Shown: positions 9,090 to 35,968 of the stretch, in pieces | How the letters are laid out: every line of letters begins with the position of its first letter | Numbering within the stretch: the first letter of the stretch is position 1 | IMG/VR virus record: IMGVR_UViG_3300037486_000582 | Span: 32,001 to 96,000 of that record | Source of the DNA: a virus | DNA length: 64,000 bases | Direction: 5' to 3' (one strand) | Notes under the pieces: generated by a model | Told to the model about the DNA's origin: nothing | The model's database searches: none | Seen by the model: only the letters and a program-made list of their open reading frames with translations | Program-made: the position numbers and the translations under genes

Positions 9090-10022
9090 TCAGACCGCGA
9101 CCACTCCCGTCGCCTTCACGACCGCCGGCTCGTGCGCGAAGCGGAAGTCCACTCGCGCCGTGACGACGATGATGAAGACGCCCGCCGACACGTCGCGGTC
9201 GGTGTCGATGCGGATCTGACGCCACACGCCGAAGAGCATGTTGGCCGGGTCCGTCATCAGGACGACCGTCTCGTTCGTGCCGCCGCCCAGGTTGGTCGGG
9301 AACACGGGCACGCCCATGACCTCGATCCCCTGGAACGGCCGGGACTGGAGCCCCGTGACCTGCTCGTCGCCGAGCAGCGTGGCGCGGTCGCCGAGGTGCT
9401 CCTGGTAGTCGATGTCGGCCTCGTCCGCGGTGAGGAAGCGGAGGGTCCGCTTGTCCCGCCGGAACTCGGACGGCATCGTCTTCAGGATGTCCTTCAGCAC
9501 GGACCGCTGGAGCGTCGCCCCGCCCGCGAGCACGGTGTTCGTCACGGCGCGGACGATGAACCCGTTGAGCGTCTTCAGCAGGTCGTCGGTGGACGAGGTG
9601 TCGCCGTTGAACGCGAGGTCCTCCAGGTCGAGCCCGATGCGCTCGGCCATGGTCGCCCGCACGGTCGACTCGAACGTCCCGCGTTCGATGCTGTCCTCCA
9701 GTGCTTCGAAGCTGATGCGCGTTTCCGCCTTCACCAGCTGAGCGTCCAGCTCCACCTTGGACGTGTCGGGCACGGAGCGCTGGCCCAGAGGCAGCGACTG
9801 CGCCTCCGTTCCCTTGCGCAGCGCGCGGCTGCCGTACCGAATCTTCTCCCTGAGCTCCTTCGGCGCGTTCATGTCGACACGCGTCATCTGCGGCATCACG
9901 ACTGCCTGGTCGATTGCCAGCTGGATGAAGCGGTCGGCCTGGGCGGGCTCGAGAAGACCGCCGGGCGCGAGGTTGGCCAGGAGGAAGTCCGCCTTCTGGA
10001 CGATGTCTCTGTTGTCCTGCAT
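9090..10022 (-). CDS. Major capsid protein (HK97 fold, PBSX XkdG-like)
   Basis: Start corrected to MQDNRD (SD GAAGGAG); GGLLEPAQADRFI, EKIRYGSRALR, DLEDLAFNGD, TDPANMLFGVWRQIRI. Confidence 0.9.
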   Translation of the reverse strand: MQDNRDIVQKADFLLANLAPGGLLEPAQADRFIQLAIDQAVVMPQMTRVDMNAPKELREKIRYGSRALRKGTEAQSLPLGQRSVPDTSKVELDAQLVKAETRISFEALEDSIERGTFESTVRATMAERIGLDLEDLAFNGDTSSTDDLLKTLNGFIVRAVTNTVLAGGATLQRSVLKDILKTMPSEFRRDKRTLRFLTADEADIDYQEHLGDRATLLGDEQVTGLQSRPFQGIEVMGVPVFPTNLGGGTNETVVLMTDPANMLFGVWRQIRIDTDRDVSAGVFIIVVTARVDFRFAHEPAVVKATGVVAV

Positions 10023-10035
10023 GGCTCCTTCTCCC

Positions 10036-11448
10036 TCACATGATCCACGGTCCGCCGCGGCGCCCGCTGCGAGACCTGTCCGTCGAGCCGTCGCCCTTCC
10101 CCTGCGTCGGCGCCTCACTCCTGCTCGCCGGTGCCTCGGGCGCGGCGGCGAGCGTCCTCTCCATGGTGTCCAGCCGCTTCATGACGGCCGTCATCGGATC
10201 GTCGGTCGGGCCGTCCTTGGCCGCCTTGTCGGCGGTCGGGCCGGAACCGACGTTGCCCAGGTTGCCGCCCTCGCGGGCGGGCGGGCTCGGCTGCGTCTCG
10301 GCGGATCGCTTCGCCGTGTCGGCCGTCGCTGTGACCGGCGTCGCGGCGTCGGCCAGAGCAGCGCCCGGTGTCTCGTCGCCGGCCGTGCCCTCGGTCTGCT
10401 CCAGCATCGCGAAGATGGGGCGGAGCGCGGCGAGGACACGCATGAGGCGCGACGGGCCGACCGCCTTCGACACGGTCTCGAGCTCGTCGTCGGAAAGCCC
10501 GGTGAGCGACTTGGCGACCCCGGCCACCTGATTGCGGATGGACACGAGCTCGTCCGGGGTCGTCGCTTCGGCGATCCGCGTGATGGCCTGGGCGATCACA
10601 GCGAGCTTGTCACCTGCCTCGCTCCCGACCCGCGAGAGCTTGGTGTCCATCTCCTTGTGGGACTCCTGCTCCGCCGGAGCAGCCAGCACCGCCCCCGCCT
10701 CGGCGACGACCGGCGGAGCTACCGCCGTTGCTGTCTCCGTGGCCTTCTCGCTCGTCGCGCTCTCCTTCTCCATCTCGACGGCTCCGCTCGGGGCAGCTCC
10801 AGCCGTCGGCTGCGGATACCGCTCCGCCAGCGCGTTCAGTTGAGCTGCCAGGTTACGGACGGCAGCCAGGGTGGCACCGTCCAGGGTTTCCGCGCCGGAC
10901 GCGCGCTGCGCGATCTCGCTCGCCGTGGCCGCGATCGTGGAGAGCGCCTGCGCCACCGCGCCACCGGCCTTCTCCGCCATCGCCGCCTCTCCCGGCTCTG
11001 CTGCCGCGCCGTCGCTCATGGGCGAAGGATACCGCGAGAGCGCCCCGCGCAGAAGGTCCGAGATCGTCTGGACCTCGGTGGCCAGTTCCGCGGGGACCGG
11101 CTGCGCGTTCGCTTCCGCCGTCTCCTGCGCGCCGCGGATCATGTTGCCGATGGACACGAGGCGCTCCGTCGCCTCGGTGACGACGCGCATCAGCCCTTCC
11201 TTCACCGGCGTCGGGAGCGACAACTCGGCCTTGGCGGTCGGCTGCTCCTCGGCTGCCCTGCTGTCTCCCTCCATGGTCCCTCCGTGCTTCACCACTAGGA
11301 ATCGGCGACGGTTCGCAGCTCGGTCAACCAGCGAGACCTCCTCAACGAGTATCTCGCTGAGCCGGTGCTGTGCTTCCACTGGGTCCAGCCCGAGGAAGAT
11401 GCGCGCCACTTCCAGCGCGTGATCGAGCTTGCTGATGTCCACGAGCAC
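10036..11448 (-). CDS. Capsid scaffold protein carrying the N-terminal protease motif EVSLVDRAAN
   Basis: Ala/Glu-rich helical protein directly upstream of MCP; EEVSLVDRAANRRRFLVVK matches the XkdF/HK97 protease Ser motif. Confidence 0.7.
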   Translation of the reverse strand: MLVDISKLDHALEVARIFLGLDPVEAQHRLSEILVEEVSLVDRAANRRRFLVVKHGGTMEGDSRAAEEQPTAKAELSLPTPVKEGLMRVVTEATERLVSIGNMIRGAQETAEANAQPVPAELATEVQTISDLLRGALSRYPSPMSDGAAAEPGEAAMAEKAGGAVAQALSTIAATASEIAQRASGAETLDGATLAAVRNLAAQLNALAERYPQPTAGAAPSGAVEMEKESATSEKATETATAVAPPVVAEAGAVLAAPAEQESHKEMDTKLSRVGSEAGDKLAVIAQAITRIAEATTPDELVSIRNQVAGVAKSLTGLSDDELETVSKAVGPSRLMRVLAALRPIFAMLEQTEGTAGDETPGAALADAATPVTATADTAKRSAETQPSPPAREGGNLGNVGSGPTADKAAKDGPTDDPMTAVMKRLDTMERTLAAAPEAPASRSEAPTQGKGDGSTDRSRSGRRGGPWIM

Positions 11449-11459
11449 AGACTATACCC

Positions 11460-14400
11460 CTACGGAGCCTCAGGTCCAAGGGCTTCGCGCAACGCGGTTC
11501 CACCCATGCTGTAGCCGGTGAACGCGCCAGCCTTCACCGCAGCCCACACGTCGTCGTTCTTGACACGGGTGGCCAGGAACCACGTTCCCACGGGAAATGA
11601 CTCGCCGCCGTGCTCCTCGACGCGCTTGGAAAGGTAGCTCTCGATGGGGATGACGCCTTCCACGGGCTTCCCCTTGTGCATCACCTTCACCTTCCCGCCA
11701 AAGTGCTCCAGGAACGAATGAGCAGCCTTCTCGACCTCCTTCGCGCTGTAGACGTCGCCCTGCGCGTCGACCTCGTCTGGCACCAGAACGACGCCAAAGA
11801 CGTACCGCTCCTCTGTCTCGGGCGACTCGGCCTTCAGCAGCCGCACCGCGCGCTCGAGCTTGTGGAGCTTCGCGACGGGCTCGCCGCCGCGCACGAGCTC
11901 GCCGGGCCGGAGCAACCCGCGCACGTCCTCAGTCGACGACGGGGCGGCCCCGGGAATAATCTCGAGTGCCTCGGCCGGGCCGAACCACCTGACACGCCGC
12001 GGCGGCCCATCTTCCCAGAGGAGCTCCAGCAACTGGACCAAGATCGTGTCGCCGACGTTCGCGTCGAGCTTCTTGTTCCCGGTGCGCCCCACGGTGACGT
12101 AGGTCTTTCCGTCGTGCTCGACCGGCTCCGCCCACCCTGCGGCGTCACCCGCTGGGATCGGCCCCACGGCCCCGACGAAGTCGTAGACCCCGGGCGAGCC
12201 CTTCACCTCATGCCGGCCGACGACCAGCGCACGCAGCTCGCGTGTCAGCTTCACCTTCGCCCAGAGGTCGTTCTCTCCGCCAAGACTGTACGTGCTCCCG
12301 AACTGCTTGAGCAGCGCGCCTTCGCTCCCCGGCTGAGCCTTCGCCCATTCCATGCTGCGCACGAGCTGGCTTCTGGTCTTGGCCATGCGTCGCGGCGCGA
12401 GGATGAACCGCTCCCCGAGCTTCTGGCCTGCCCACCACCGCTCGAGCAGCCGCCGCCGCTGAGCCAACGGGACGGCCGTGAGGTTCCCTTGTGGACTGAG
12501 GTACAGCGCGTCGAAGACGACGAAGCGCAGGGCGCTGTCGTCGGCTGGCCCGGTCCCGCGAAAGCGCGCCAGCTCCCGCCGTGGCAGGAAGTTACCCTTG
12601 GCGTCCACGCCCATGATCTCGCCGTCGAGGATGAAGTTGCCTCCGACCTTCCGCAAGTCTGCCGTGAGCCCAGGAAGAACGGAGGAGAGGTCGCGCTTCC
12701 TGTCCTCCGTGAAGACAAGCACACCGCCGTCCTCCACGCCGGGAGCCACACCGGCGTCCCAGGACTCAGCAACGGCGCGGAAGCCGTTGTACTTGGGCTC
12801 GACCTGGACTCCGTCACGGACGAGCTGGTCCGTGAAGACGGTCCGCGCCGCGAGGTCGGCGTCGGTGAACGTGGACGTCTCGCGTTTCGCCGGCTTCATC
12901 GGCTGGAACAGGGCTGGCGGACGGAGCAACGTGCGGTCGCCGCCCTTGTCGTCGGTATCGTCGATGTCGGCCGGGTCCCACACCTGTGTTCCATCTGACT
13001 GGACGCGGAATCGCTTCTCGGCCGGCTCCACCGGAGTGCTGCTCACGGTGCCGTTCGCGAGCGCGTGGACGTGCGTGTTGCCGCGCAACGCCGGGCCGCC
13101 GGTGCGCCCAGCGTCGGCGAGGCCGTGGACGTGCGCCTGGCCGCCGCGTTCGGTTGTCGTAACCCCGCCGCCGGGCAGCCGGTGGCTGTGACCTTGTGCC
13201 TCCGTCTGCTTCGGAATGGCGCGCCGCGGGTCGGACCCCGGGCTGAACTGGAACAGGTCTGAGTCGACCTCCTCAGCGACGAGCGTGAACAATCCCTTGA
13301 GCCGCTGACCGCCGAGCCGGAACTTCAGGAACGCGCGCTGGGCGTCGAGGAGGTCGGCGCGACCGCTGTCGATCCGCTGGATGCCGGACGCCGTGTTCTT
13401 CGTATCGTTCAGCGCCAGCCCGGCGACGCGCGTCCCTGGAGCCACGTCGCCTTCGAAGTTGAGCAGCGCGTTGCCGGCCTCCTGTCTGACGCCGGCAATG
13501 ACCTCCTCACCCGAGAGCGGATCGCGCTGGAGCTGGAAGTCCCACACCCCGGAGCCGTCCGGTTTCCCCAGGACCAGGTGCCACACCTGACGACTCGGCG
13601 CCGCACGGACGACGGTCTGTCCCTTCCACCACTGCCAGAGCAGCGCGAAGGGCACGCGCTCCTGTTTCGCGACGGGCTCCGTCTCTTCTTCCTCCGGGTC
13701 GTACCCCTCTCGGAGAACCTTCCGCTCGCTCCTGCGGTACTGGAACTCCCCATCGAGGACGACGTTCTCCTCCGTGAAGAAGCGGGCGTCCACGAGCGCG
13801 TCTCGGATGCGCCGCGCCTCGGCCTCACTGTCCGCGAGCCAGAACCTGTACTCCCGCGGCGTCGCCTGCATGAGCGTCGTAGGCATCCCGCTCTGCCCAA
13901 GCGGGGGCATCGTCTCGTTGTCGACGGAGTGCCGGCGCAACACGCCGGGGAGCAGCACCTTGTTGAACCCGCCCGTCCAGAAGGTTTCGCCCTCCTGCGC
14001 GACGCCTTCCTCCATTGGCTGGTCCCCGCCTTCCAGCATCCGGAAGGTCAGCGTCCCACTGAACTTCGGGTCACCCGTGAGGAAGTACTCGTGCGAGAAC
14101 GGCTTCTGCAGTCCCCACTCCGCCTGCGGTGTCGCCACCTCGACGTAGACCCCGGGCTCGTTCCGCGTCGCCCCGACCCCGCCCGGCTCCACGACGACGT
14201 CGCCGAGGTCAAGCCAGACAGTCGGCTGCCGGCTCTTGGCCGCCGCGAAGATCCGGTCCGGGAGCATCATCGGCTTGGTGTAGCGGCTGCCGGCCACGTC
14301 GAAGGCGTCGGCAATGACGCGCGCCTCGGCAACCGTGTTGACCTCGGGGACGGCCCCAGCCTTCTGGAGCGCCATGGTCCAGCCGACCAGGAAGTCCTTC

Positions 14401-17135
14401 ACCTGCATTCGGAGGTCGGCGTGCAGCGTCTTCCCGCGGAAGTGGAACTGCATCACGGCCGGCCGCTTGCCGGGCGCGTCGGGCCAGTCTTGAAGCGGGT
14501 CGTCCTGCTTCGCTGTGAGTGCCATCTCCTTGACGGTTCGGTCCTCGTGCGGAACGAGGACCAGGTCGTACAAGGCGACGTGGTTCGTGTACGGGCCGCC
14601 CTGCCCCTCCGTGTGGAACTGCACCCGCTGAGAGAGCCGCGGCCCGAGCGCGCGTCCGAGGCGAAACTTGATGACGTGCTCCGTGTCCGCGTCGAACGGG
14701 CCACGAATCAGAAGGTCGATGTCGTTCTCGCTCTTACCCGCGTTGCAGACCGAGCCGACCAGGTAGACGGCCGGCATCCGCAACGCCATCGGCTTCGACA
14801 GGGCGCCGAGAACCTCGGTCAGCGCGACCGGGTCGTCGGCATGGACAGCGGCCCCTCCGGGATAGATGGGGGCGAACTGCCCGTCTCCATCCACGTCGCC
14901 CTTCGACATGCCCCGCCGGAGCAACGCGGTCGTCTCCTCCGCGAGCGGGTCGACCTCGACGGTCTGCACGTTCCGGCGCTCGAGCTCGCGGAGCAGCATG
15001 ATGTGGGCGTTGACCACGTCCTCCCGCGTGACGCCTTCCGCCCTGGTCGTGCGCGGAGGGAAGGCTCGGGCGAACAGCCTGTGAAGCTCCCTGTCCATGG
15101 AGATGAGCTGCCCGTCCGGCTCCGTCGCGAGCGCCTCCGGGCTCGGGTCGGCGACGAACTCCTGAATCGCCTTGAGCGTCCTGTCGCGAAGGGCATCGTC
15201 GATGGTCAACTGCCTGGACTTCTCGACGTCCCTGTCGAAGTCCACCGTGGCGCCGAACCGCCGGCCGCCGGGCGGCTGCTTCAGCCGAAGCGGTGGCTCG
15301 AACAGCACGACCAGGTTCAAGGGCAGGTACCAGATGCTCTGCTCGGTGGCGAACTCCCTGGCCGAGAACTCGTCGACTCCGGCCCGCTGTTCCGCCGTGA
15401 GCTGCGCCATCGAGTCGATCTGCACCGGGTCGTCCTGAGCAACGACAGCCCAGACGTAAGCTCCGTCGAAGTCCGCTGGCGCGACCTCGTTGACGAGCGC
15501 CTGGGGCTGGCCGACGCGGGTCGTGCGCCGCCGCCTGGAGAGCAGCCCGGCCGTCTGCCCAGCCCGCAGCCTTGCGATGAAGTGCTTCGGGTCCGGCACC
15601 TTGAGCGCCGGAAGCTCTCCGCGCGGCGGCTCGGCCTGCCACACCATGACCGGAACGAGCCCGCGCGACGTGATGACCGCCGCTCCAAGTTCCTCGATGT
15701 CGCCGGACTGGGCAAGGGAACAGACCGCCGGGTCCAGGAACGCTGCCTTCCGCGCCTCGCGAACGACGTCCGCCGCGAGGTCGACGTGCGCGCCCTGGGC
15801 ACGCCCCGCAGGGGCAGCCCGAAGCTGAAGCGGTGGGCTGAACGACCGGACGACTGTGGCCGGGATGTAGAAGAGGCTCTCCGCCTTGGCGAAGTACGCC
15901 TTCGTCTGCTCCGCGACGTGAGCAGCGCGGCCGCCGAGGGCTTCGACGGAAGCCACGCGCTCCGCGTCCCCAAGGGTAGCGACTGCCCAGACGAACGAGT
16001 CGGAGAAGCCCAGCGGCTCCAACTCGTTCACGAGCGCCTGCTGGACCCCGGTGCGCCCGCGCATCGCCGTCGAGGAGAGAACGCCGACAGGCAAGCCCTG
16101 GCGTGCACGCTCGAGCAGGAACCGCGGGTTGGGCACACGCAGCGTCGGGAAGGAGCCGGATTCCGCCATGAAGACCTGGACGTCTCGAACGACGACCTGT
16201 GGGCCAGTCGGAACGTTCGTCTCCAGGGGTTCCGGGAAGGCGGCGACAACCTTGACCGGCCAAGCGTACAGCGGAGCAGCACACCAAGACGGCTGCGCCC
16301 CGCACCATTCGGCGCGGATGGCCTGCGTGATCCTGTGCTCGTCTTCGCGGGCAGCGAACTGCTCATCCGAGAGCTCCGCGACGGTGCCAAGTTCAACGAC
16401 GCCGAGCGCTCGCCTCCCGTTGAGCAGCACGTACCGCGCCTCTCCGATGTCGAGCGGGCGGCTCTTGACGAGCAACGTCTTCTCCCCGGACAGGATGGCC
16501 TCGGCCATGGCCATCGGAGAGACGGCAAGCCCAACGGTCGGAAGATCGTCGTCCTGCTTGCCGAGGCCGACGACGACCCCGGGATGGACCGCTTCGGACA
16601 ACGCGCGCAATGCGGAACGCGCAAGGCTCGTCAGGACGGTCGGGCCGAATCGCAGCGTGTGCGTGTGCTCGCCGTCCATCACCGTTCGCGCGCCGGCGAG
16701 CGCGTGCGGGTGAAGCCCGGCCGTCTCGGTGATCAGTTCGACGCCGTCGCCGAGCGCCACGACGTGGCGGTGCCCGCTTCCAGCCGGAGCAGCCGCCCCG
16801 TCCACGATCTGGTGGGCGTGCGGTCCATCGCTGTTCGTCACGAGCATCGCCCCGGCCGGAAGCGTAACCCGTTCGCCGCCGGCCAGGCCGACGATGGTGG
16901 TCCCGCCGAGGTGGAAGACGTGCTGATGGAGCCCGCCCAGGCCGGTCTCCGTCGTGGACGATACGTCGTGGACGTGGGCGCCGGAGGCACACTCGAGATC
17001 GCCGAGCCTGTGCATCATGTCGATCTGCGTGCGCTCCGCGTCCTTCGCGCGTTCAGCGAGCAGCGCCTCGGCGTTCTTCAGCGCCACGTCCATACGACGC
17101 TCGAGCTCCTCTCGCGGTGTGCAGGCAGCCGTCAT
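11460..17135 (-). CDS. Polyvalent protein (~1891 aa): HxH repeats, 3x ASCH-like, nucleotidyltransferase, 2x LigD phosphoesterase-like, ATP-dependent DNA ligase, XkdF-type prohead protease
   Basis: Start moved to MTAACT (overlaps upstream stop). ASCH: AEAILSGEKTLLVK; NTase: VYLVGS..NDIDLL; PE: VMQFHFRGKTLHADLR; ligase: EPKYNGFR, ILDGEI, VVFDAL, EGALLK, WAKVK; XkdF: VFGVVLVPDEVDAQGD..EKAAHSF..FTGYSMGG. Confidence 0.85.
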   Translation of the reverse strand: MTAACTPREELERRMDVALKNAEALLAERAKDAERTQIDMMHRLGDLECASGAHVHDVSSTTETGLGGLHQHVFHLGGTTIVGLAGGERVTLPAGAMLVTNSDGPHAHQIVDGAAAPAGSGHRHVVALGDGVELITETAGLHPHALAGARTVMDGEHTHTLRFGPTVLTSLARSALRALSEAVHPGVVVGLGKQDDDLPTVGLAVSPMAMAEAILSGEKTLLVKSRPLDIGEARYVLLNGRRALGVVELGTVAELSDEQFAAREDEHRITQAIRAEWCGAQPSWCAAPLYAWPVKVVAAFPEPLETNVPTGPQVVVRDVQVFMAESGSFPTLRVPNPRFLLERARQGLPVGVLSSTAMRGRTGVQQALVNELEPLGFSDSFVWAVATLGDAERVASVEALGGRAAHVAEQTKAYFAKAESLFYIPATVVRSFSPPLQLRAAPAGRAQGAHVDLAADVVREARKAAFLDPAVCSLAQSGDIEELGAAVITSRGLVPVMVWQAEPPRGELPALKVPDPKHFIARLRAGQTAGLLSRRRRTTRVGQPQALVNEVAPADFDGAYVWAVVAQDDPVQIDSMAQLTAEQRAGVDEFSAREFATEQSIWYLPLNLVVLFEPPLRLKQPPGGRRFGATVDFDRDVEKSRQLTIDDALRDRTLKAIQEFVADPSPEALATEPDGQLISMDRELHRLFARAFPPRTTRAEGVTREDVVNAHIMLLRELERRNVQTVEVDPLAEETTALLRRGMSKGDVDGDGQFAPIYPGGAAVHADDPVALTEVLGALSKPMALRMPAVYLVGSVCNAGKSENDIDLLIRGPFDADTEHVIKFRLGRALGPRLSQRVQFHTEGQGGPYTNHVALYDLVLVPHEDRTVKEMALTAKQDDPLQDWPDAPGKRPAVMQFHFRGKTLHADLRMQVKDFLVGWTMALQKAGAVPEVNTVAEARVIADAFDVAGSRYTKPMMLPDRIFAAAKSRQPTVWLDLGDVVVEPGGVGATRNEPGVYVEVATPQAEWGLQKPFSHEYFLTGDPKFSGTLTFRMLEGGDQPMEEGVAQEGETFWTGGFNKVLLPGVLRRHSVDNETMPPLGQSGMPTTLMQATPREYRFWLADSEAEARRIRDALVDARFFTEENVVLDGEFQYRRSERKVLREGYDPEEEETEPVAKQERVPFALLWQWWKGQTVVRAAPSRQVWHLVLGKPDGSGVWDFQLQRDPLSGEEVIAGVRQEAGNALLNFEGDVAPGTRVAGLALNDTKNTASGIQRIDSGRADLLDAQRAFLKFRLGGQRLKGLFTLVAEEVDSDLFQFSPGSDPRRAIPKQTEAQGHSHRLPGGGVTTTERGGQAHVHGLADAGRTGGPALRGNTHVHALANGTVSSTPVEPAEKRFRVQSDGTQVWDPADIDDTDDKGGDRTLLRPPALFQPMKPAKRETSTFTDADLAARTVFTDQLVRDGVQVEPKYNGFRAVAESWDAGVAPGVEDGGVLVFTEDRKRDLSSVLPGLTADLRKVGGNFILDGEIMGVDAKGNFLPRRELARFRGTGPADDSALRFVVFDALYLSPQGNLTAVPLAQRRRLLERWWAGQKLGERFILAPRRMAKTRSQLVRSMEWAKAQPGSEGALLKQFGSTYSLGGENDLWAKVKLTRELRALVVGRHEVKGSPGVYDFVGAVGPIPAGDAAGWAEPVEHDGKTYVTVGRTGNKKLDANVGDTILVQLLELLWEDGPPRRVRWFGPAEALEIIPGAAPSSTEDVRGLLRPGELVRGGEPVAKLHKLERAVRLLKAESPETEERYVFGVVLVPDEVDAQGDVYSAKEVEKAAHSFLEHFGGKVKVMHKGKPVEGVIPIESYLSKRVEEHGGESFPVGTWFLATRVKNDDVWAAVKAGAFTGYSMGGTALREALGPEAP

Positions 17136-17479
17136 GTCGTCACCTTCGGCCCCTCCGGTGGACCCCAAGCCCGCTCCGGAGCGGGCGGTTCCCACACGGT
17201 TCCGTCCAGCGTCGCACGCAGCGCCCGCGGAAGCGAGTCCAGCGCACGCTGGGTGCTGTAGTGGAGGTCCACGCGGAGCTTCGCGAACCAGTCGTAGCAG
17301 ATGTTCGCCCTCCGCTTCACCTCGGCCTCCGTCGGAGCAACCGAGACGGTGACGATGAGGCTCGCCGCCCGGTCCTCCACGAAGCTGTTGCGAACGACCC
17401 GCCCGACCGCGGCAAAGACACGGCGCAGAGAGGCCTCGTCCTTCACTAGAGCGACCAGGAACTCGCGCTTCGTTGACAT
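17132..17479 (-). CDS. Hypothetical protein
   Basis: MSTKREFLVAL..., SD GAGGGGAAGG, between MuF and polyprotein. Confidence 0.6.
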   Translation of the reverse strand: MSTKREFLVALVKDEASLRRVFAAVGRVVRNSFVEDRAASLIVTVSVAPTEAEVKRRANICYDWFAKLRVDLHYSTQRALDSLPRALRATLDGTVWEPPAPERAWGPPEGPKVTT

Positions 17480-17490
17480 CCTTCCCCTCG

Positions 17491-18735
17491 TTACAGGACA
17501 GGGACCGTCGTGCACCGGCAGCTCGCGTGAGCGGGAGGCACCATCGCCCCGCCACCGCTCCCCGCCCCGCCACCGACCGGCCTGTAGACGCCGACTCGGT
17601 CGACGACCCCGAACCCGCGCTGCTGAATCTGTGCGACGGGCGGACCGAGCGGACCGCCGCGCGGAGAGACATGAATTTGGTCCCCGACGACCCTGTACCA
17701 CGCCGACATGTTGACCGCGGCTTCAGGGTCGGGGCTCCGCAGGGCGGCTTCGGTGCGCGTCAGCGACGACTCGACGGGGAACTGCTGGCCGTGTAGCCAA
17801 CGGCACGTCTCACACGTCCGCTCGTCGAGGACAGCCTCCCACGTGTAGGAGTCGATCTCGGCCACGCCGTAACCAACCATCTGTCCGTAGGACCGGGCCT
17901 GGGCGACGGCCGCACTCGCGACGGCGCGGTAGTAGTTCTCGTCCCGTCCAAGAGCAGCACCGCGCATAGCCACGGCGAGGTCTTGTGCGATTTGCCTGTA
18001 GCCGAGCCCCTCGGCGGCACCCTCGCCAACGATGCGCCGAGCAGCCCGGGAGAACCGCTCACTTCGGCGAGCGAACTCGTCGGAGATGAAGACGGACCCG
18101 TTCCGTCCGATTCTCCGGGCGAGCTCCCGTTCGACCGGACTGAACGTGAAGGCCAACCCGCGAGCAGCCGTCGCCCCCAACGCTGACCTCTGGGCGACGG
18201 ACGCCGCAACCTGCTGAAGCTGGCCGAGCGCACCTTCTCGGAAGTCCCGGCTCCCCGGGATGTCCCGTACTGCAGTCGCCAGCATGGCGATGGCGTTGTC
18301 GACCTGAGCCGCGGTCATGGTTGGCCACGGTCGGCGGAGCTGGTCCAGCGCACGACGAAGGGTCCTCCGTGCTGACGCACGGCTGGTGGCCCGGAGAGCG
18401 CGTTCCAAGCGTTCGATGGCCAACGCAAACGCACGACGAGACAGCGGGAGGTCCGCCTTCTCGACGGTCACCGTGTCCTGCTGGAACGGCCAGAGCCAGA
18501 GGCCACTCTGCGTCTGGATGGCGCCACGGTAGACGAGGACATCGCGCTCGGTCGCCTCGGCCAACGCCTTCGCAGCCGGCCCGACCTCCCGGGCATCGGC
18601 GATGCGATGCAGCAGGCCGATCTCTGGAATCGCAATTGCGACCGCACCGCAGGCCGTCAGGGCAGGCGGGTCCGCGAACAGGACGCCCCGTGGGTCGCCC
18701 ACCTCGGTCCAGGGCGGTCCGAGCAACGCGGTCAT
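17491..18735 (-). CDS. Minor head protein MuF (SPP1 gp7-like)
   Basis: WEAVLDERTCETCRWLHG and PPAHASCRCT motifs; after portal. Confidence 0.85.
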   Translation of the reverse strand: MTALLGPPWTEVGDPRGVLFADPPALTACGAVAIAIPEIGLLHRIADAREVGPAAKALAEATERDVLVYRGAIQTQSGLWLWPFQQDTVTVEKADLPLSRRAFALAIERLERALRATSRASARRTLRRALDQLRRPWPTMTAAQVDNAIAMLATAVRDIPGSRDFREGALGQLQQVAASVAQRSALGATAARGLAFTFSPVERELARRIGRNGSVFISDEFARRSERFSRAARRIVGEGAAEGLGYRQIAQDLAVAMRGAALGRDENYYRAVASAAVAQARSYGQMVGYGVAEIDSYTWEAVLDERTCETCRWLHGQQFPVESSLTRTEAALRSPDPEAAVNMSAWYRVVGDQIHVSPRGGPLGPPVAQIQQRGFGVVDRVGVYRPVGGGAGSGGGAMVPPAHASCRCTTVPVL

Positions 18736-18738
18736 CGC

Positions 18739-19194
18739 TCAGACGGCGTCCCTGGGCATCGGAGCTCCGCCGGTCGCGCAGAGCACAACGTCCGTCGCCC
18801 CGGCCGCCACGTAGGCCGTGATACGGAACGCGACCAGGTGTCCGTCCACCGGAACCTGCGCGCTGGCGGCCAGCCCGGTCAAGCCACCGACCGACGTGAG
18901 CGTCTTCCAGCGCCGTCCGAGCGGAGCAGCGGCGTCCGGCGTCGCGACCATTGGCAGGACGTCGACGGACCCGCCGTCCACTGGTGCCCCGGTCGGGCCA
19001 CGGAAGTCGGCGATCAGCCTGACGCTCAGCCACTCTCGAGCATCGAGGATGACGACGTCGGGGCCGAGCTCACCCGCGTTCCTGTTGTCCGGTGTCCAGA
19101 GACCCGACACCGGAGCGTCCGGCGCGTTCCGCGGAGCCCGGACGTCTGTCTTCGCACTCGGACTGTAGAGCCTACGCTTCGTGGGAGCTGTCAT
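18739..19194 (-). CDS. Hypothetical protein
   Basis: 151 aa ORF filling the portal-MuF gap. Confidence 0.55.
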   Translation of the reverse strand: MTAPTKRRLYSPSAKTDVRAPRNAPDAPVSGLWTPDNRNAGELGPDVVILDAREWLSVRLIADFRGPTGAPVDGGSVDVLPMVATPDAAAPLGRRWKTLTSVGGLTGLAASAQVPVDGHLVAFRITAYVAAGATDVVLCATGGAPMPRDAV

Positions 19195-21058
19195 CTGCGT
19201 CCTCCTCGTGCCCGAGCGGGTTCGAAGCCGCCCGAGCAGCCGCGGCGTCCAGTGCGGCCAGCGCGCTGTCGCCTTCCGTGTGCGTCCTGCGTCGGCCGAG
19301 GGCGAGCCCTTGGTGCGACAAGTTCACGAGGTCTTGCGCCTCGGCGACGTCGAGCCCGGCGACCGCCGGTGGCATGTCCTCCGGTGCGCCCTCCACCGGA
19401 GGGGCGAAGCCGGCGAGCGTGAGCTGGATCGGCTGCTTCGCCCACGGCAGGTCCAGCGGGTCGAGCTCGTGGCCGAGGATGTCGCTCGAAAGGTAGCGTG
19501 CTTCGTTCGGGGTGATTGCCCCGACCTTCGCCAGATCGAGGATGACAGCCGCCACCCGTTCCGGGTCGCGGGTCTGCGGCCCGAGCGAGCGGAAGGTCCA
19601 CATTCGGATGTCGAGCATCGGAAGGATGACCCTGTTCAGCCAGGAGTCGAACTCCTTCCGCTCGGGCTCGAACACCTGCTCGTCGGCAAAGCGCAAACTC
19701 GCGTCGGCCGTGGACTTGTTGAAGTCGCGCACGTCACCGCGGAGCAGCCGGGGCAGGCGGAAGGAGCTGCCGATCTTGTCCACGTTCCGCTCGTCGTACT
19801 TCTGGAACATGGCGTCGCCCTTCTGCACGTCGCCGAGGCGTTCGAACGTGAGCCGCGGGTGCTCGTGCGGCGACATCGGGTCGCCTTCGTCGTCGGCCTC
19901 GATGACCATGATCTTGTGGAAGTTCTCGCGCCCCTTGATGTGGTCGCGGATGAACGTCTCGATCCTGGTCACGCTCTCCGAGCTGAGCCGCCCGCCGGAC
20001 ACGAGCAGCGCCAGCGGCGGAATGGCCTTGTTGTCGAAGTAGGCGAAGTTGACCTCGTCCGACGCCCGGCTGCCGAGGACCGCGAGCAGGTTCCCGATCC
20101 AGCGCGGGACACCGTAGGGCTCGCCAGTCCTGTGAATGCGGAAGTGGACCATCTCGGTCGCCTGGTGCTCGCGACCGCGGGTCTGCTCCGCGAAGACCGC
20201 CAGGTTCGCATAGATGCGCCCAGTCTCTCTGGAGACGACCCGCGGGTCGCCAAACTGCTTGAACCAGATGATCTTTGAACCGACCGCCTGGACGTAGCGG
20301 CGGAAGAACTTCGGCTGGTAGATGACCTCCCAGCCAAGCCCGAGGTGGACGCGGTCGGGTACCATGACAGGAATCTCGTCCAGCGCGGTGCAGCGGACGT
20401 GTGTCGGCGGCACCCCAACGAAGCGACTCACCTCCCCGACGCGGTTCCGAAGGATCTCCCAGAAGCCGTTGCCGACGATCTCAAGGTCCTGTCTCGTGTG
20501 GCGGCGAAGCGTCTCGAAACTCCCGTCTGGGTAGACGCCTTCGAAGAACGAGTCGAGCCGCGCCTTCTCGAACCGCGCTCGGATGCGGAGTGCCTCGACG
20601 GTCTTCGCGACCACCTCGTCCGTCGGAAGGTACTGCTCTGGGTCCTTGACCCGGCTCGCCTGTGCCAGCACGTCCGCGTCGTCCGCCGCGTCTCGGAGGT
20701 CGTCGCTCGCTGCCGTCGATGCCTCCGCCGCGCGCACGCGCTCGACCCACATGGCGTCGCGGACCTTCTCCTCCGCCTCCTCGCCGAACAGGTCGAACCG
20801 AGCAGCGAAGCGGTAGCCGAGGCCGTCGATGTTGGTGACGTACGCCTGGACGTTCTGCGGAAGGGCGCTGCTGTTTTCCCACATCCGCAGAAGGTCGATC
20901 GGATTGTACGGCGGTTCGAGGACACCGGCCTCGCGGAAGATGGACTGAAGCTGGTCCGTGTCCTCGCGAATGGAGACCGGAGCGTGGACGGCTTGTCCGA
21001 GCAGCCGCGCCTTCAGCGTCGCGCGTGGTTCCTTCGGTTCTTCCTGTGCGTCGGCCAT
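19172..21058 (-). CDS. Portal protein (PBSX XkdE-like)
   Basis: LEPPYNP, DLEIVGNGFWEILRN, WFKQFGDPR, PYGVPRWIG, YFDNKAIP, FRLPRLLRG..DFNKSTA, QVFEPER. Confidence 0.9.
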   Translation of the reverse strand: MADAQEEPKEPRATLKARLLGQAVHAPVSIREDTDQLQSIFREAGVLEPPYNPIDLLRMWENSSALPQNVQAYVTNIDGLGYRFAARFDLFGEEAEEKVRDAMWVERVRAAEASTAASDDLRDAADDADVLAQASRVKDPEQYLPTDEVVAKTVEALRIRARFEKARLDSFFEGVYPDGSFETLRRHTRQDLEIVGNGFWEILRNRVGEVSRFVGVPPTHVRCTALDEIPVMVPDRVHLGLGWEVIYQPKFFRRYVQAVGSKIIWFKQFGDPRVVSRETGRIYANLAVFAEQTRGREHQATEMVHFRIHRTGEPYGVPRWIGNLLAVLGSRASDEVNFAYFDNKAIPPLALLVSGGRLSSESVTRIETFIRDHIKGRENFHKIMVIEADDEGDPMSPHEHPRLTFERLGDVQKGDAMFQKYDERNVDKIGSSFRLPRLLRGDVRDFNKSTADASLRFADEQVFEPERKEFDSWLNRVILPMLDIRMWTFRSLGPQTRDPERVAAVILDLAKVGAITPNEARYLSSDILGHELDPLDLPWAKQPIQLTLAGFAPPVEGAPEDMPPAVAGLDVAEAQDLVNLSHQGLALGRRRTHTEGDSALAALDAAAARAASNPLGHEEDADDSSHEA

Positions 21059-21837: not shown

Positions 21838-23436
21838 TCATCCGATGGCGCGAACTCCAGACGACGACGATGAAGACGCCCGCCGGCCGGTGTCGCGACG
21901 GAGTTTCCGCTCGTACATGCGCGCCGCTTCCCGCGCGATCCAGGAGGCCATGAGCCGGTCGCCGGTGTGACCTTGCGGGTCGTAGGCCAGCATGTCGTCG
22001 ATCCAGTCGGCGACGCCCCTGGCGACGCGCCGGGAACCGACTTCGCAGGGGATGAGCCACCGGGAAGCCGCCATCTCCGCGGCGAGGCTCTCGACGCCGT
22101 ACTCCGGGGACAGCTTGTTGCGGCCCGTGGTGAAAGCGCGGACGCGCATCCCAGGAGCGCGTTCCCTGACCCACTGGACGAGGAAGTCCTGAGCAGCGTT
22201 GTTCTCCACGACGACCGTCGAGCGGAAGCGTTCGTTCACCGAGACGACCCGGTCGATGATCTCCGGGCCGCTCCACCGCCCCGCCTGAACCTCCAGCACT
22301 TGGCGCATCCCATTTGGCCAGAGCAGCAGCGTGAACAAGGCGCTCTTGCCGGACCCCGGCCGTGCGCTGATCGCGAGGTCGACGCCGGTGATGGTCATGA
22401 AGCCGGCCGGCATCCCGCCCATCTCGAGCAACTCCTCCGTCAGACTCATCTCGGCGGCGAACTCGGGGTCGCGCTCCGCGATGTCTTGCAGACTGCTGTA
22501 CGTCGCGAACCCTTCGCCGAGCGCCAGGCACTGCTCGATCCACGACCGCTGGAACCGCGCGGTGCTCTCGTCGCGCGGCTGGCAGAGCATCTGACGAGAG
22601 AACTCGATCGGCCCGAGCACCTGGGTTCGGACGTGCTCGATCCGGTCCAGCGGCCACCGCTCCGGCCAGGCCAGCTTGCCGTCCTGGTCCAAGACGGGAA
22701 ACCGCATCGAGTGCCACCCCTGGCGCTCCAAGTTGTGGGCCATGTCCTTCGGGTGCCAAGCGTTCGTCAGGAGGCAGACCCACGCACCCTTCGCGAGCCG
22801 CGGGAAGGCGGAAGCGCGAATCCACTCCTCGATCTTGTCCCGCTGGTAGTTGGTGCGTGTGTTGTTCTCGGTCAGGACGTCGTCGATGATGAGCCCGTCG
22901 AGCCGCGCGCCCTGGATGGTTCCTCCCTCCGGCGAGTAGGCTTGCAGGGACGGGTCCTTGATGCCGCCCGGACGCTCCACTTCCAACGAAACGTCGGTCC
23001 AGAGCGTGCCGCGACGAAGGTCTGGGAAGACCTGGTGGAGTATCTGGTTCTCGATGATGTGCTGCTGCGCGGTGCGGATGATCTTCTTTGCCTGGCTCTG
23101 CGTCGCGGACAGAACTGCGTACCGCCGACGCTGGTCCTTCCCGAGCAGCCAGAGGACGCGGGCGATGGCGAGCTGCTGTGTCTTTCCGCTCTCGGGGAAC
23201 GCCCAGATGACCACGTTGCGGTAGCGCTCGATGGCGTAGTGCCAGGCTGCCTGGAAGGGCTTCACCTGGATGTGGTTCCCCGTCTCCTCGTCCCGGAGGA
23301 CCATCTCGCAGAACGCGGGACAGTCCCGCCGCGCCAGACGGAGCATCGCCGCCCACGCAAGCTGCGCCTGCTCACCGATACCATCCGTCGGCGCGTCGCG
23401 CGCCACGCCCGTTCCAATGCCCATCGGCCCAAGCAT
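21838..23436 (-). CDS. terL: Terminase large subunit (start 23436 or 23424)
   Basis: Walker A FPESGKT, Walker B LIIDD, nuclease GVDLA, VVENNAAQ, HTGDRLMA; upstream of portal. Confidence 0.9.
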   Translation of the reverse strand: MLGPMGIGTGVARDAPTDGIGEQAQLAWAAMLRLARRDCPAFCEMVLRDEETGNHIQVKPFQAAWHYAIERYRNVVIWAFPESGKTQQLAIARVLWLLGKDQRRRYAVLSATQSQAKKIIRTAQQHIIENQILHQVFPDLRRGTLWTDVSLEVERPGGIKDPSLQAYSPEGGTIQGARLDGLIIDDVLTENNTRTNYQRDKIEEWIRASAFPRLAKGAWVCLLTNAWHPKDMAHNLERQGWHSMRFPVLDQDGKLAWPERWPLDRIEHVRTQVLGPIEFSRQMLCQPRDESTARFQRSWIEQCLALGEGFATYSSLQDIAERDPEFAAEMSLTEELLEMGGMPAGFMTITGVDLAISARPGSGKSALFTLLLWPNGMRQVLEVQAGRWSGPEIIDRVVSVNERFRSTVVVENNAAQDFLVQWVRERAPGMRVRAFTTGRNKLSPEYGVESLAAEMAASRWLIPCEVGSRRVARGVADWIDDMLAYDPQGHTGDRLMASWIAREAARMYERKLRRDTGRRASSSSSSGVRAIG

Positions 23437-23504
23437 ACCGCACTGTGACGCGCGCCGCGACCGCAACGGAAGCGGCGGACGAGCAACGTCCTACAGCCTC
23501 CGAT

Positions 23505-26239: not shown

Positions 26240-27511
26240 CTACGCCCGCTCGGCGTTCCAGTAGTAGATCAAGTCGCCGTTCTCGTCCTTGCCCTCCGGC
26301 CGGATGACGCCTTCGAAGTAGCGGTATGGGGAGCGCCCGCGGTTCGGATTGTTCCAGAGCCAGTGCAGGAGGTCGTACATGGACTGGTGCCAGATCTTCG
26401 ACGCGCCTTCCACCGTGCCCCAGTTGAGGACGCGGGCGCGGATGTTCTTGAGCAGCCTCAAGTCCTTCTCGAAGTCGCTCCAACGGACTGAGCCGTTTCT
26501 GCGAGCCAGGACGAGCGCCTCGGTGAACTGGCCTCGGCTGTAGTTCCAGGTCGGGGGCAACCCGCAGCAGGAGCCGTTCGCGCAGCGCTCCTTGAAGTGG
26601 GCGTCCGAGACGTAGAAGCGCAAGCCGACCTCCTTGCACAGCTCCTCCATCCGGTCGATGACGGGCCGCTTCACGTTCCGGTTGAGCCGCATGTAACCGC
26701 GCATCGCCGAGTACCGCTTGTAGAAGGCGTACAGGTCGAAGCCGGCGAGCTTCGACATCTCGTGGAAGTGGAGCCGCCCGCCCGGGCTGCGCTCCTCCAT
26801 GCAGAAGTACTCGGTGCTGAGCGCCGTCGCCCCGGCACTGGCCGCGTCACGGATGAGTTGCTCGTAGGTCGCGTCGCTGATCCCAGGGATGAAGGGGCGT
26901 AGCCGAAGGGTCACGCCACCCTTGTTCAGCTTGGCGTACTTCTCCATCGCCCGGAGGCGCTCCATTGGGCTCGGCACACCCTTCTCGACCTTCCGGGCGA
27001 GTTCCTGGTCGCCCGTGACGATCGAGATCTTCATGTTCCAGTTGTCCTGACCTCGGAAGATGTCCGTGTACCGCTCGTCGTCGAGCCACCAGGTCCCCTT
27101 CGTGCTGAAGCAGATGGGGTAGTCGAGGTCGCGCCAGAACCGGAGCAGCTCCAACCCAACGCCGTACCGCTTCTCGAACGGGCAGAACGGGTCGGACAAC
27201 CCGCCCCACTGAAGGACCTTCCGCGCCCGGATGAAGTCGGTGAAGCGATGGTCCGTGGTCGGGTCGAGCCACAGCCGCATGACCCGGTCGACGTTGACGG
27301 GGACGGCCTCGTGGCTCCAATACTTGTCCTTGCACTTCCCGACCCCGCGGGAGAACTGCGAGAAGCAGTACAGGCAGAAGTACCCGCACACGCTGTACTG
27401 GTCGAAGGTGACCGGCATCGAGCAGTCGGCGACCTCCGCGGAGCAGCGCGGCGAATCGTAGAACCGCTGAAGCCGTGCCTTCGGCCGGCCGTCACTCGTT
27501 TCCGCTGCCAT
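26240..27511 (-). CDS. Radical SAM protein (spore photoproduct lyase-like clade)
   Basis: DQYSVCGYFCLYCFS (CxxxCxxC), GGLSDPF, STKG, VEKGVPSPMERL, LRLRPFIPG. Confidence 0.85.
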   Translation of the reverse strand: MAAETSDGRPKARLQRFYDSPRCSAEVADCSMPVTFDQYSVCGYFCLYCFSQFSRGVGKCKDKYWSHEAVPVNVDRVMRLWLDPTTDHRFTDFIRARKVLQWGGLSDPFCPFEKRYGVGLELLRFWRDLDYPICFSTKGTWWLDDERYTDIFRGQDNWNMKISIVTGDQELARKVEKGVPSPMERLRAMEKYAKLNKGGVTLRLRPFIPGISDATYEQLIRDAASAGATALSTEYFCMEERSPGGRLHFHEMSKLAGFDLYAFYKRYSAMRGYMRLNRNVKRPVIDRMEELCKEVGLRFYVSDAHFKERCANGSCCGLPPTWNYSRGQFTEALVLARRNGSVRWSDFEKDLRLLKNIRARVLNWGTVEGASKIWHQSMYDLLHWLWNNPNRGRSPYRYFEGVIRPEGKDENGDLIYYWNAERA

Positions 27512-28253
27512 GCTGCGTCCCAGCGCCACGCCCGGCGACCTCGTCGGCCATCCGCTGAAGCTCCTGCACAGGGTAGATGATGCGGTTCGTGCGGAAGGGC
27601 ACGCCGAAGCACCTCTCCAGCCACGTCCGCTCCGCCTCGCCCTTGAAGACGATGATGAGCCGTTCGCTCTGGAGTGAGTCGTCCTCGGCATCGAGCGGCG
27701 GAAGCGGGTCCGGGCGGAGCCCGGAGTCCTGCGTCCGAGACAGCCGACCATAGTCGATGCCTCCGGGCGCGTTGGGCTGGTCGGGCACCTGGAAGGTGAC
27801 CGGGGCGAGCAACTCGTCGATGTTCAGGTCCGGGATGCGGGTGCTCTCGATGATCGCCTGGACCTCGTCCTCGCTCATCCCCATCCCGCTGAAGAACGTG
27901 GTCTCGGGGTTCCAGTCGGCATAGCGGCTGTTGAGCTGGAGCAGCTTCGCGGCTGCGTCTTGACGGTCCTTCGCCCGGACCTCGACGTAGACGATGGGCG
28001 GGATGGTCCAGCCTTCCTGCTCCAGCGACCGCAGCGCGGCACACGTCTGGTGTCCGTCGAGGATCAGCGGCGAGCCCTCCTCGTCGCGCCACACGAACTT
28101 CGGCACGAACTGGCCGTAGCTCGTGAGACTGGACTTCAGCTTGGCGAGCGCCTCCTCGTCCAGCGGCTTCTTCAGGTCGCCCTGGAAGTCGCGGAGTTCC
28201 GTGTACGGAATGGTCGGTAGGCTGTGTGGGTTGTCGATCTGCAGCGTAGGCAT
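27492..28253 (-). CDS. ParB/Srx-like N-terminal domain protein
   Basis: LAKLKSSLTSYGQFVPKFVW..ILDGHQT..LQLNSRY. Confidence 0.75.
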   Translation of the reverse strand: MPTLQIDNPHSLPTIPYTELRDFQGDLKKPLDEEALAKLKSSLTSYGQFVPKFVWRDEEGSPLILDGHQTCAALRSLEQEGWTIPPIVYVEVRAKDRQDAAAKLLQLNSRYADWNPETTFFSGMGMSEDEVQAIIESTRIPDLNIDELLAPVTFQVPDQPNAPGGIDYGRLSRTQDSGLRPDPLPPLDAEDDSLQSERLIIVFKGEAERTWLERCFGVPFRTNRIIYPVQELQRMADEVAGRGAGTQHGSGNE

Positions 28254-35278: not shown

Positions 35279-35968
35279 TCATTGCGCCGGCGCGTCCTGT
35301 GTCCTGTCGTACAGGTCACGGAGCAACCGCGCGTCAGCGTCCCGGAACCGCCCGGGCGCGAGCCCGCCCTGGAACGCCATGTCCGGGGCGAGCGGATACA
35401 TCACCGACCCGCTGTCGTCGGGGTCGTGGGCAAGCCCAAGTACATGCCCGAGCTCGTGGACCAGAACCCGGTGTGCCGTCCCGTCGTCGGGGACGTTCCG
35501 CATCCGGACAGTGGCCCTGGCCACGAAGCCGCTTCCGACCTCGCGGGTGTGGAAGCAGCCGGCGTCGGCGTCCGCCGCCTCCGCAGGAACACCGAAGACC
35601 AGGGCAACGCGCGGTTCGGCGCTGACCGGACAGAAGGCCAGGGCGTCGAAGCCGAGCTGCATGTTGACCTCGCGGACCGCATACTCGGCACGACGCATGT
35701 CCGCCGACGTCAGCTCCGCGCTCTCGTTGCGGACCCCAAGGCACAGCGGGAAGGCGCTCCTGCCCCAACGGACCTCTTCCGGCGACGCACAGACGCCGAC
35801 GGCGCCCGAGCCTTCAACCTGGTCGGCGTACTGCGCGACCGTTCCGCTCCAGCACACACGAAGCAGGAGCGGCTCGGTGTGCCGCGGAACGAACCACACG
35901 AGCAGCACGACGGCGGTCACGGCGATGGCCGCGAAGGCGGCGACGGATACGATCCACTTCCAGCGCAT
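35279..35968 (-). CDS. Membrane-anchored matrixin-like (metzincin) metalloprotease
   Basis: N-terminal TM helix; HELGHVLGLAH and Met-turn SVMYP. Confidence 0.85.
   Translation of the reverse strand: MRWKWIVSVAAFAAIAVTAVVLLVWFVPRHTEPLLLRVCWSGTVAQYADQVEGSGAVGVCASPEEVRWGRSAFPLCLGVRNESAELTSADMRRAEYAVREVNMQLGFDALAFCPVSAEPRVALVFGVPAEAADADAGCFHTREVGSGFVARATVRMRNVPDDGTAHRVLVHELGHVLGLAHDPDDSGSVMYPLAPDMAFQGGLAPGRFRDADARLLRDLYDRTQDAPAQ

Follow-up and report, generated by a model that had tools for sequence, protein, structure and literature searches.

A giant head-operon protein of a sediment phage with DNA-repair-type enzyme domains upstream of an XkdF prohead protease core

Why would a phage place enzymes that clean and seal nucleic-acid ends on the same polypeptide as its prohead protease? 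The question is raised by P0002, a giant protein of 1891 aa encoded in the head operon of IMG/VR virus record IMGVR_UViG_3300037486_000582. The record has 108,577 bp and is rated complete by CheckV; the window, which is the whole stretch of DNA that was analysed, corresponds to its bases 32001-96000 (64,000 nucleotides, G+C content ~69%). A sequencing-run search found the stretch in seven sediment metagenome DNA runs and listed no RNA runs containing it; three of the seven are possible sources. The answer favoured here, with a confidence a little above even, is that P0002 is a polyvalent head protein. The DNA-directed enzymes and binding domains upstream of its protease core would be packaged, ejected and used to repair the viral DNA.

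From the N- to the C-terminus, the giant protein contains HxH repeats, three ASCH-fold domains, a helical domain, a Pol-beta-type nucleotidyltransferase (NTase) and a LigD-type 3'-phosphoesterase (PE) domain, PE1. These are followed by a helical mid part, a second PE-fold domain (PE2), further HxH repeats, a minimal ATP-dependent DNA ligase and the XkdF (Peptidase_S78_2) core. Residue numbers are given by r = (17135 - nt)/3. The protein, its parts and the small open reading frame (ORF) that precedes it are the following.

17132..17479, minus strand: small upstream ORF, 115 aa; its stop overlaps the ATG of the giant gene (ATGA), as read from the sequence
11460..17135, minus strand: giant polyvalent head-module protein P0002, 1891 aa (open frame; 15 long homologues; 35 IMG/VR loci)
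16641..16994, minus strand: N-terminal HxH repeat region, residues 48-165, six HxH (HxH count; weak YmaF match)
16197..16556, minus strand: ASCH-fold domain 1, residues 194-313 (AlphaFold (AF2) model, VIA, Foldseek and atlas lead to ASCH)
15825..16157, minus strand: ASCH-fold domain 2, residues 327-437 (VIA; similarity to domain 3)
15219..15623, minus strand: ASCH-fold domain 3, residues 505-639 (VIA; found in most homologues)
14886..15203, minus strand: conserved helical domain, residues 645-750, REDVVNA...RR motif (alignment)
14520..14798, minus strand: Pol-beta-superfamily NTase domain, residues 780-872 (GS...DxD motif; VIA; profile; atlas)
13986..14483, minus strand: PE1, LigD-type 3'-phosphoesterase domain, residues 885-1050, with an insert of ~45 aa (invariant motif; profile)
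13671..13985, minus strand: helical mid region between PE1 and PE2, with MPPxGxS, TPxEFRYW and RDALV motifs (alignment; high pLDDT)
13236..13658, minus strand: PE2, second PE-fold domain, residues 1160-1300 (VIA, Foldseek)
13056..13208, minus strand: second HxH repeat region, residues 1310-1360, three HxH (HxH count; variable among relatives)
11886..12923, minus strand: minimal ATP-dependent DNA ligase, adenylation domain 1405-1640 and OB-like (oligonucleotide-binding) tail 1641-1750 (Pfam, NCBIfam and PDB profiles)
11487..11822, minus strand: XkdF-type prohead protease core (Peptidase_S78_2), residues 1772-1883 (Pfam, PHROG)

The frame of the giant gene is open up to 17672, beyond the ATG at 17135, and the added stretch looks non-coding. 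The ATGA overlap with the stop of the 115-aa ORF supports the start at 17135; the database copy of the protein begins 14 aa later. The 115-aa ORF, located between the gene for a MuF-like minor head protein and the giant gene, is unannotated and has a Shine-Dalgarno-like GAGGGGAAGG upstream. An earlier note, made from the letters of this DNA alone, had read the chain as HxH repeats, an ASCH domain with two further ASCH-like repeats, a Pol-beta-type nucleotidyltransferase (GS..DxD), a LigD 3'-phosphoesterase-like domain, a second, degenerate PE-like domain, again HxH repeats, an ATP-dependent ligase with KYNG as motif I, and an XkdF protease. Every one of these segments was recovered in that order and place, the NTase with moderate support only.

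The ligase is recognised by Pfam DNA_ligase_A_M over residues 1440-1629 (5.6e-16; 59.3 bits against a cut-off of 26.2). The best NCBIfam ligase models on the giant protein are LigD and the ligases of non-homologous end joining (NHEJ), and a ligase family profile compared with the PDB retrieves DNA ligases from archaea and from human, with values down to 7.5e-19. Motif I is K1448-Y-N-G and not K-x-D-G; K1448 is conserved, and N1450 does not vary among 15 close homologues and is conserved to at least 90% in a wider alignment. Motifs III (LDGE, 1503-1506), IIIa (FDALY, 1541-1545), IV (SEGALLK, 1604-1610) and V (WAKVK, 1625-1629) are also conserved. The OB-like tail, over which no model or profile matches, retains a conserved RxRWFGP (W1717, F1718, P1720). 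No other ATP- or NAD-dependent ligase was detected in the 108,577-bp genome.

The phosphoesterase module PE1-mid-PE2 was followed in sub-alignments drawn from 35 related IMG/VR loci and in an AlphaFold model of residues 880-1300 with a mean predicted local distance difference test (pLDDT) of 87.7. In PE1, the residues Q896, H898, H905, D907 and R909 show no variation among 23-25 sequences. They match the metal and phosphate ligands Gln40, His42, His48, Asp50 and Arg52 of the Pseudomonas aeruginosa enzyme and align with the motif of 3p43 and 3p4h. The PE1 profile finds the archaeal PE 3p43 at E 4.5e-4, right on the catalytic motif. Pfam LigD_N (PF13298) has no match in P0002 itself; it does match distant relatives in their PE1 segments (3.3e-7 with the full model covered, 1.3e-4 and 2.3e-3), that of relative L025 reaching 30.8 bits over the full length against a cut-off of 31.1. 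The PE2 segments of the distant relatives have no LigD_N match. PE2 was instead identified by its fold, with VIA Z 16.8 and a root-mean-square deviation of 2.1 over 118 residues to 3p43, Z 16.3 to 3p4h and Z 14.8 to the PE domain of P. aeruginosa LigD. The top seven Foldseek PDB matches of the 880-1300 model are all LigD-type phosphoesterases (prob 1.0), and NCBIfam LigD_PE_dom falls on PE2 at E 0.085. The catalytic His/Asp/Arg set is absent from PE2, where the motif is WQxWKG...WHL. Comparison of PE1 with PE2 by hhalign gave a probability of just 76%, over the C-terminal halves only. No known fold could be assigned to the mid region or to the helical domain 645-750; the latter gave non-specific helical matches only (Z ~6-7) and no Pol X-like multi-domain match.

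The NTase contains the hG[GS]x9-13Dh[DE]h motif of the Pol-beta superfamily together with a third carboxylate: G794-S795, D805-I-D807 and D857 are invariant or nearly so in the family alignments. Structure comparison by VIA gives Z 5.5 to the MNT-type protein HI0073 and 5.4 to the MNT antitoxin. Searched against PDB sequences, the NTase profile ranks African swine fever virus (ASFV) Pol X first, over the GS...DxD stretch, with a marginal E of 0.08. The neighbours in a language-model protein atlas are NTP_transf_2/Polbeta (0.94), and a homologue (P0012) has been named 'predicted nucleotidyltransferase' by JGI. Pfam NTP_transf_2 has no match in the giant protein.

The three barrels of the N-terminal half were examined in an AF2 model of residues 186-890 (m9a31e1750393; pLDDT 72.5 overall, ~75-90 for individual domains). 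Domain 1 gives VIA Z 8.8 to TTHA0113 (2dp9; 23% identity) and 6.9 to 1wk2, and 2dp9 is also its best Foldseek match (2.9e-4). Domain 2 gives Z 7.8 to YqfB (9kyh) and 7.2 to PH0355, and shares 39% identity with domain 3 (E 7e-27). Domain 3, the copy conserved across the family, gives Z 9.3-9.4 to EOLA1/CXorf40A, 9.1 to ZmASCH and 8.1 to the TRIP4 ASCH domain bound to double-stranded DNA. For all three copies only ASCH, EVE or YTH proteins stand at the top of the list (Z 7.8-9.4), and the Foldseek top matches of the N-terminal-half model are all ASCH proteins. A search of the BFVD viral structure library returned one unnamed match. Pfam ASCH (PF04266) has no match in the giant protein and none in the genome at E up to 10. 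By these models, the three copies have an ASCH/PUA-like beta-barrel fold; what is assigned is the fold and not family membership, because the Z values are middling and Pfam ASCH is without a match. The HxH motifs lie at residues 54, 70, 106, 122, 142 and 157 in the N-terminal region, which matches YmaF at E 0.085, under the Pfam cut-off, and at residues 1316, 1335 and 1355 in the second region. The nine motifs compare with 1.04 +/- 0.99 expected and a maximum of 6 in 5000 shuffles.

At the C-terminus, Pfam PF14550 matches the XkdF core at 7.8e-26 (91 bits, the cut-off being 24; 97.1 bits when the whole genome was searched), and a PHROG head maturation protease matches it at 1.2e-29. Among 15 sequences S1876 never varies and H1820 hardly does, and both are assumed, from their role in the family, to be catalytic. 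The core is the only head-protease domain detected in the genome; neither Peptidase_S78 nor ClpP was found in its 108,577 bp. The head genes that surround it are these.

21838..23466, minus strand: large terminase (TerL) (PHROG 38 at 1.5e-56)
19172..21058, minus strand: portal protein (Pfam Phage_portal 2.3e-16)
17491..18735, minus strand: MuF-like minor head protein (Pfam Phage_Mu_F 1.6e-9; PHROGs)
10036..11448, minus strand: scaffold-like gene P0018, 470 aa, Ala/Glu-rich (position conserved in ~20 loci)
11281..11364, minus strand: strand motif EEVSLVDRAANRRRFLVVK, scaffold-gene residues 29-56 (conserved in 12 loci; hhalign; PHROG 3017)
9090..10118, minus strand: major capsid protein, HK97 fold family (Pfam Phage_capsid 1.1e-8; PHROG 1623 at 1.1e-81)

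The same-strand order in the window is TerL, portal, a 151-aa ORF, MuF, giant, scaffold and capsid, and the order portal, (MuF), giant, scaffold, capsid is repeated in ~24 IMG/VR loci. The giant protein thus occupies the conserved slot of the prohead protease, the slot held by canonical XkdF proteins in Lactococcus phage 28201 and in psiM100.

The protease core and the scaffold are parted in an unusual manner. In gp33 of Lactococcus phage 28201 a strand motif (hhSxVDxPAN), the XkdF core and a scaffold tail form one chain, with the motif before the core. In the giant chain the motif is missing and is found on the following gene: the N-terminus of the scaffold protein aligns with residues 3-32 of gp33 (hhalign E 1.4e-5). 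PHROG 3017 (positions 4-31) likewise puts the motif beside the core. In psiM100 ORF12 the two also share one chain, with the motif second, and in relative L035 the motif lies inside the Pfam Peptidase_S78 envelope of a separate HK97-type protease. A BLASTP comparison of the scaffold protein with psiM100 ORF12 gave no match, the motif being seen by reading and profile comparison only. The Pfam PF14550 model does not cover it. The motif therefore occurs before the core (gp33, L039:2899-3948), after the core (psiM100 ORF12, L040:2773-3993) or, here, on a separate gene, a placement that looks like a circular permutation or a split of the protease fold.

Core and motif are parted here by a stop, 11 bases and a change of frame. 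A fusion of giant and scaffold by frameshift was considered and rejected: the scaffold (-1) frame is closed by a TAG at 11454-11452, one codon before the scaffold GTG, which excludes recoding. Readthrough of the TAG of the giant gene would add just 54 unrelated residues. The presence of the motif in related one-chain proteases, and on the scaffold gene here, suggests that the giant protein docks on the scaffold. In the simplest reading of these sequences, the core would bind the scaffold strand in trans and so tether the cargo to the scaffold.

The architecture is widespread. All 15 long homologues contain ligase and XkdF, with a conserved core from about residue 505 to the end and a variable N-terminus. 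Searched against 1.84 billion representatives, a profile of the PE module retrieves 1576 clusters, of which 680 score E 1e-30 or better; most of the proteins are 1000-2200 aa long. The partner domains in 36 wider relatives are ligase (27), XkdF (20), Dam methylase (9) and uracil-DNA glycosylase (2), as well as an HK97-type S78 protease, a C5 methylase and a pyrimidine-dimer glycosylase (Pyr_excise) in one each, and several inteins; the pairing of PE with ligase, which the earlier note had seen in this one chain, is real. In 25 closer relatives the counts are 21 for ligase, 17 for XkdF, 4 for Dam methylase and 2 for Pyr_excise. The catalytic motifs are invariant across 17-36 diverse relatives, which indicates that the enzymes are under selection.

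Several relatives vary the plan. Two proteins (L016:9215-13108 and L018:2336-6169) keep ASCH, NTase, PE1-PE2, the OB-like tail and the protease and are without the ligase adenylation domain, as read from an alignment coverage of 0.10-0.11. In L028:7730-11524 and L033:334-5802 a ligase-like stretch lies between NTase and PE1 and not after PE2, and in L020 and L021 ASCH3 is separated from the helical domain by HxH repeats and a Dam methylase; the order of domains has thus been shuffled within the family. In L035 the PE-module protein (860 aa, 9971-12553) is separate and abuts a complete HK97-type (Peptidase_S78) protease gene (12555-13496), so that adjacency without fusion also exists. Inteins or homing endonucleases interrupt several of the wider relatives (Intein_splicing in 2, Hint in 1, LAGLIDADG in 2).

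A further relative is protein AJP62006.1 of the archaeal virus ANMV-1 (L036, KP703175.1, 3200-5800), the C-terminal half of which matches residues 858-1295 of the giant protein, that is PE1-mid-PE2. Its label 'ATP-dependent DNA ligase' probably stems from the database name of the PE domain and needs correcting, given that this part is a PE module. No phage GenBank record covers 80% or more of the giant protein, and no cultured phage record covers the architecture. Among species genomes only two relatives were found, both on Myxococcales metagenome-assembled contigs, one from a bin labelled 69% G+C. No description of the ligase, PE or head-protease fusion was found in open-access papers and preprints.

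How might such a protein work? The XkdF core would dock on the strand motif at the N-terminus of the scaffold, and the 205-kDa protein would be co-assembled inside the procapsid. Subsequently, the completed protease would cut the scaffold and the polyprotein, probably after the linker lysines K193, K876, K1157, K1374 and K1768. Cleavage after Lys has a precedent in HK97. The lysine is conserved in 15/17 sequences at K876, 11/16 at K1157 and 16/17 at K1768. The freed enzymes would then remain with the DNA and enter the next host alongside it. In the new host, PE1 would clean blocked 3' ends, the NTase would add nucleotides and the ligase would seal the viral DNA, while the ASCH-fold domains and the inactive PE2 would hold nucleic acid. 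Loading into the capsid is the most economical reading, favoured by the conserved protease slot, by the core being the sole head protease detected and by the theme of polyvalent proteins.

The substrate is most likely DNA rather than RNA, to judge from the sequence comparisons: in relatives, DNA glycosylases or DNA methylases are joined to this set of domains, and the ligase profile matches DNA ligases best. A single-strand-lesion or base-excision-type repair is favoured over Ku-type end joining or RNA repair, since the glycosylases of the relatives would feed 3'-blocked nick or gap intermediates into the pathway. A bolder version of this reading is tentative: the protease would be a two-gene enzyme, complete only once the core captures the scaffold strand, so that loading, activation and release are coupled, and the virion would bring along every step of short-patch DNA repair, from the cleaning of a lesion or end through the addition of nucleotides to sealing, to mend on entry the damage that the genome suffered in the environment.

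Several observations weigh against this reading. The ligase has Asn for Asp in motif I, and in the Chlorella virus ligase the change Asp29Ala leaves no detectable activity or a trace only on pre-adenylated substrate (reviewed in PMC6035275). The fold and profile evidence for the NTase is moderate (Z and E as given above). In PE1, Q970 and W974 align to His84 and Tyr88 of LigD, a tentative correspondence from a low-scoring second stretch of the alignment. His84 and Tyr88 are essential in the LigD PE. With Gln and Trp in their place, PE1 appears to have a variant active site, and by their predicted residues neither PE1 nor the ligase is a textbook enzyme. The covalently attached scaffold domain, the usual means of targeting a prohead protease, is absent, and the protease could equally degrade its cargo. 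Finally, this being the only ligase detected in the genome, a role in the producing cell is possible.

That last point leads to the rival that survives best, although it is considered unlikely. The enzymes would act in the producing cell, tethered to procapsids, where, as a quality control, they would mend nicks, gaps and base damage in the concatemeric DNA immediately before or during packaging; they would then be degraded or left behind, not ejected. T4 needs DNA ligase for encapsidation in vivo. Such a role would fit this precedent, the single ligase and the place of the giant gene among the late head genes, and the glycosylase and methylase partners would suit a treatment of DNA before packaging. 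However, the fusion to the protease puts the cargo inside the shell, whereas the DNA is processed outside it, at the portal and terminase.

A more doubtful rival regards the polyprotein as a matter of expression only: the enzymes would be released in the cytoplasm for replication, recombination or repair, and the core alone would enter the head. The single ligase and the conserved lysine-containing linkers between domains are consistent with it, and the separate PE protein and S78 protease of L035 indicate that the fusion is not obligatory. On the other hand, a late operon is poor timing for replication enzymes, and convenience hardly explains why a head-protease fusion recurs in 20/36 clusters and with two protease types.

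The remaining rivals concern the substrate, and here the interpretation offered by the earlier note has to be divided. Its domain set, the PE-ligase pairing and the fusion to a prohead protease all stand, as does its link to polyvalent proteins fused to head proteins. It had proposed that the kit circularises the genome or repairs breaks made by restriction, CRISPR or anticodon nucleases. Circularisation or the joining of restriction or CRISPR double-strand breaks after injection, in the manner of LigD, is improbable. PE, ATP-dependent ligase and a nucleotide-adding enzyme are indeed present and mirror the PE-LIG-POL set of LigD, and the mycobacteriophages Omega and Corndog, which circularise by NHEJ, offer a precedent. 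However, no Ku is encoded in the genome, the Pfam scan of the giant protein gave no primase-polymerase of the archaeo-eukaryotic primase (AEP) family, and the glycosylase partners in relatives point to single-strand lesions. Without Ku and with a minimal two-domain ligase, repair of nicks or gaps, or of the base-excision type, is no less likely than break joining or circularisation. A kit for RNA, which would heal and seal tRNAs after their cleavage by anticodon nucleases, can hardly be credited: ASCH domains are mostly RNA-linked (YqfB, ZmASCH), motif I departs from K-x-D-G, and one relative matches Pfam RNA_ligase and three mRNA_cap_enzyme, but the ligase profile is far closer to DNA ligases, every domain that relatives add is DNA-directed, the ASCH domain of TRIP4 binds double-stranded DNA and the Pfam scan of the giant protein shows no 5'-kinase domain.

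The preferred reading, a packaged DNA-repair protein, can be compared with known systems. The nearest are the polyvalent proteins (Iyer, Burroughs, Anand, de Souza, Aravind 2017, PMC5512222), whose packaging was predicted and whose assemblin-like peptidases are always C-terminal and probably act in virion assembly. Like them, the giant protein has many unrelated enzyme domains per chain, a gene beside those for portal and MuF, a C-terminal prohead-type peptidase and a domain content that varies between relatives. Unlike them, its cargo is a predicted DNA-repair set and not toxins, ADP-ribosyltransferases or RNases, and its peptidase core is without the strand motif, which sits on the next gene. 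The text of PMC5512222 contains no architecture with an ATP-dependent DNA ligase, LigD phosphoesterase, ASCH or XkdF.

Bacterial LigD (POL-PE-LIG, acting with Ku in NHEJ) shares the Q-H...H-D-R motif of the PE, a minimal ligase and a nucleotide-adding enzyme. In contrast to LigD, the giant protein has a small Pol-beta-type NTase and not an AEP primase-polymerase, a PE that is duplicated (one copy inactive), insert-bearing and apparently altered at the His84/Tyr88 counterparts, no Ku in the phage genome, and a fusion to capsid machinery. By its sequence it is LigD-like in enzyme set but falls outside LigD itself, lacking AEP and Ku and carrying changed PE residues.

The XkdF protease-scaffold proteins (28201 gp33, Methanothermobacter psiM100 ORF12 and PBSX XkdF) have the same PF14550 core and the same slot between the portal or minor head protein and the capsid protein. 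In those proteins a single chain comprises motif, core and scaffold tail, whereas here the core comes at the end of a cargo of 1760 residues and the motif and tail are on a separate gene. Enzyme domains N-terminal to an XkdF core are also found in the PHROG fusions phrog_1530 ('DNA methyltransferase') and phrog_14859 ('RNA ligase'), and cultured Pseudomonas and Lactococcus phages match among such fusions. These have one enzyme in ~370-380 residues, compared with eleven or more domains in the giant protein. The ASFV repair set (Pol X, ligase and apurinic/apyrimidinic endonuclease) also combines a minimal Pol-beta-type enzyme with an ATP-dependent ligase for short-gap repair. It consists of separate proteins of a eukaryotic virus. 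The match of the NTase studied here to Pol X is marginal, and no thumb subdomain was seen in it.

If the cargo does ride in the capsid, a large and so far undescribed phage family would bring its own DNA-repair enzymes into the cell, a family that spans sediment phages and at least one archaeal virus. Such proteins would counter defences that nick or restrict DNA, as well as the damage that the DNA collects outside the host, and they would form a new functional class of virion-delivered proteins. The locus would also supply enzymology with small ligase, end-healing and polymerase modules that nature has already fused, and it might exemplify an assembly checkpoint in which a protease is divided between cargo and scaffold.

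Elsewhere in the window, an SbcC/Rad50-like ATPase (58543-60162, minus strand), a gp32-like single-strand DNA-binding protein (62356-63306, minus strand) and a zinc metallopeptidase with a Matrixin/Reprolysin motif (35279-35968, minus strand) are encoded. The phage also encodes a radical SAM/SPASM enzyme (35987-37084, minus strand), a second, weak radical-SAM match (26240-27751, minus strand), a protein with a B12-binding domain (52022-53161, plus strand) and a CxxCxxCC protein (42175-42951, minus strand). These last four may form a pathway for the modification of nucleic acids or metabolites, and a connection with the ASCH domains, as readers of modified bases, is a speculation.

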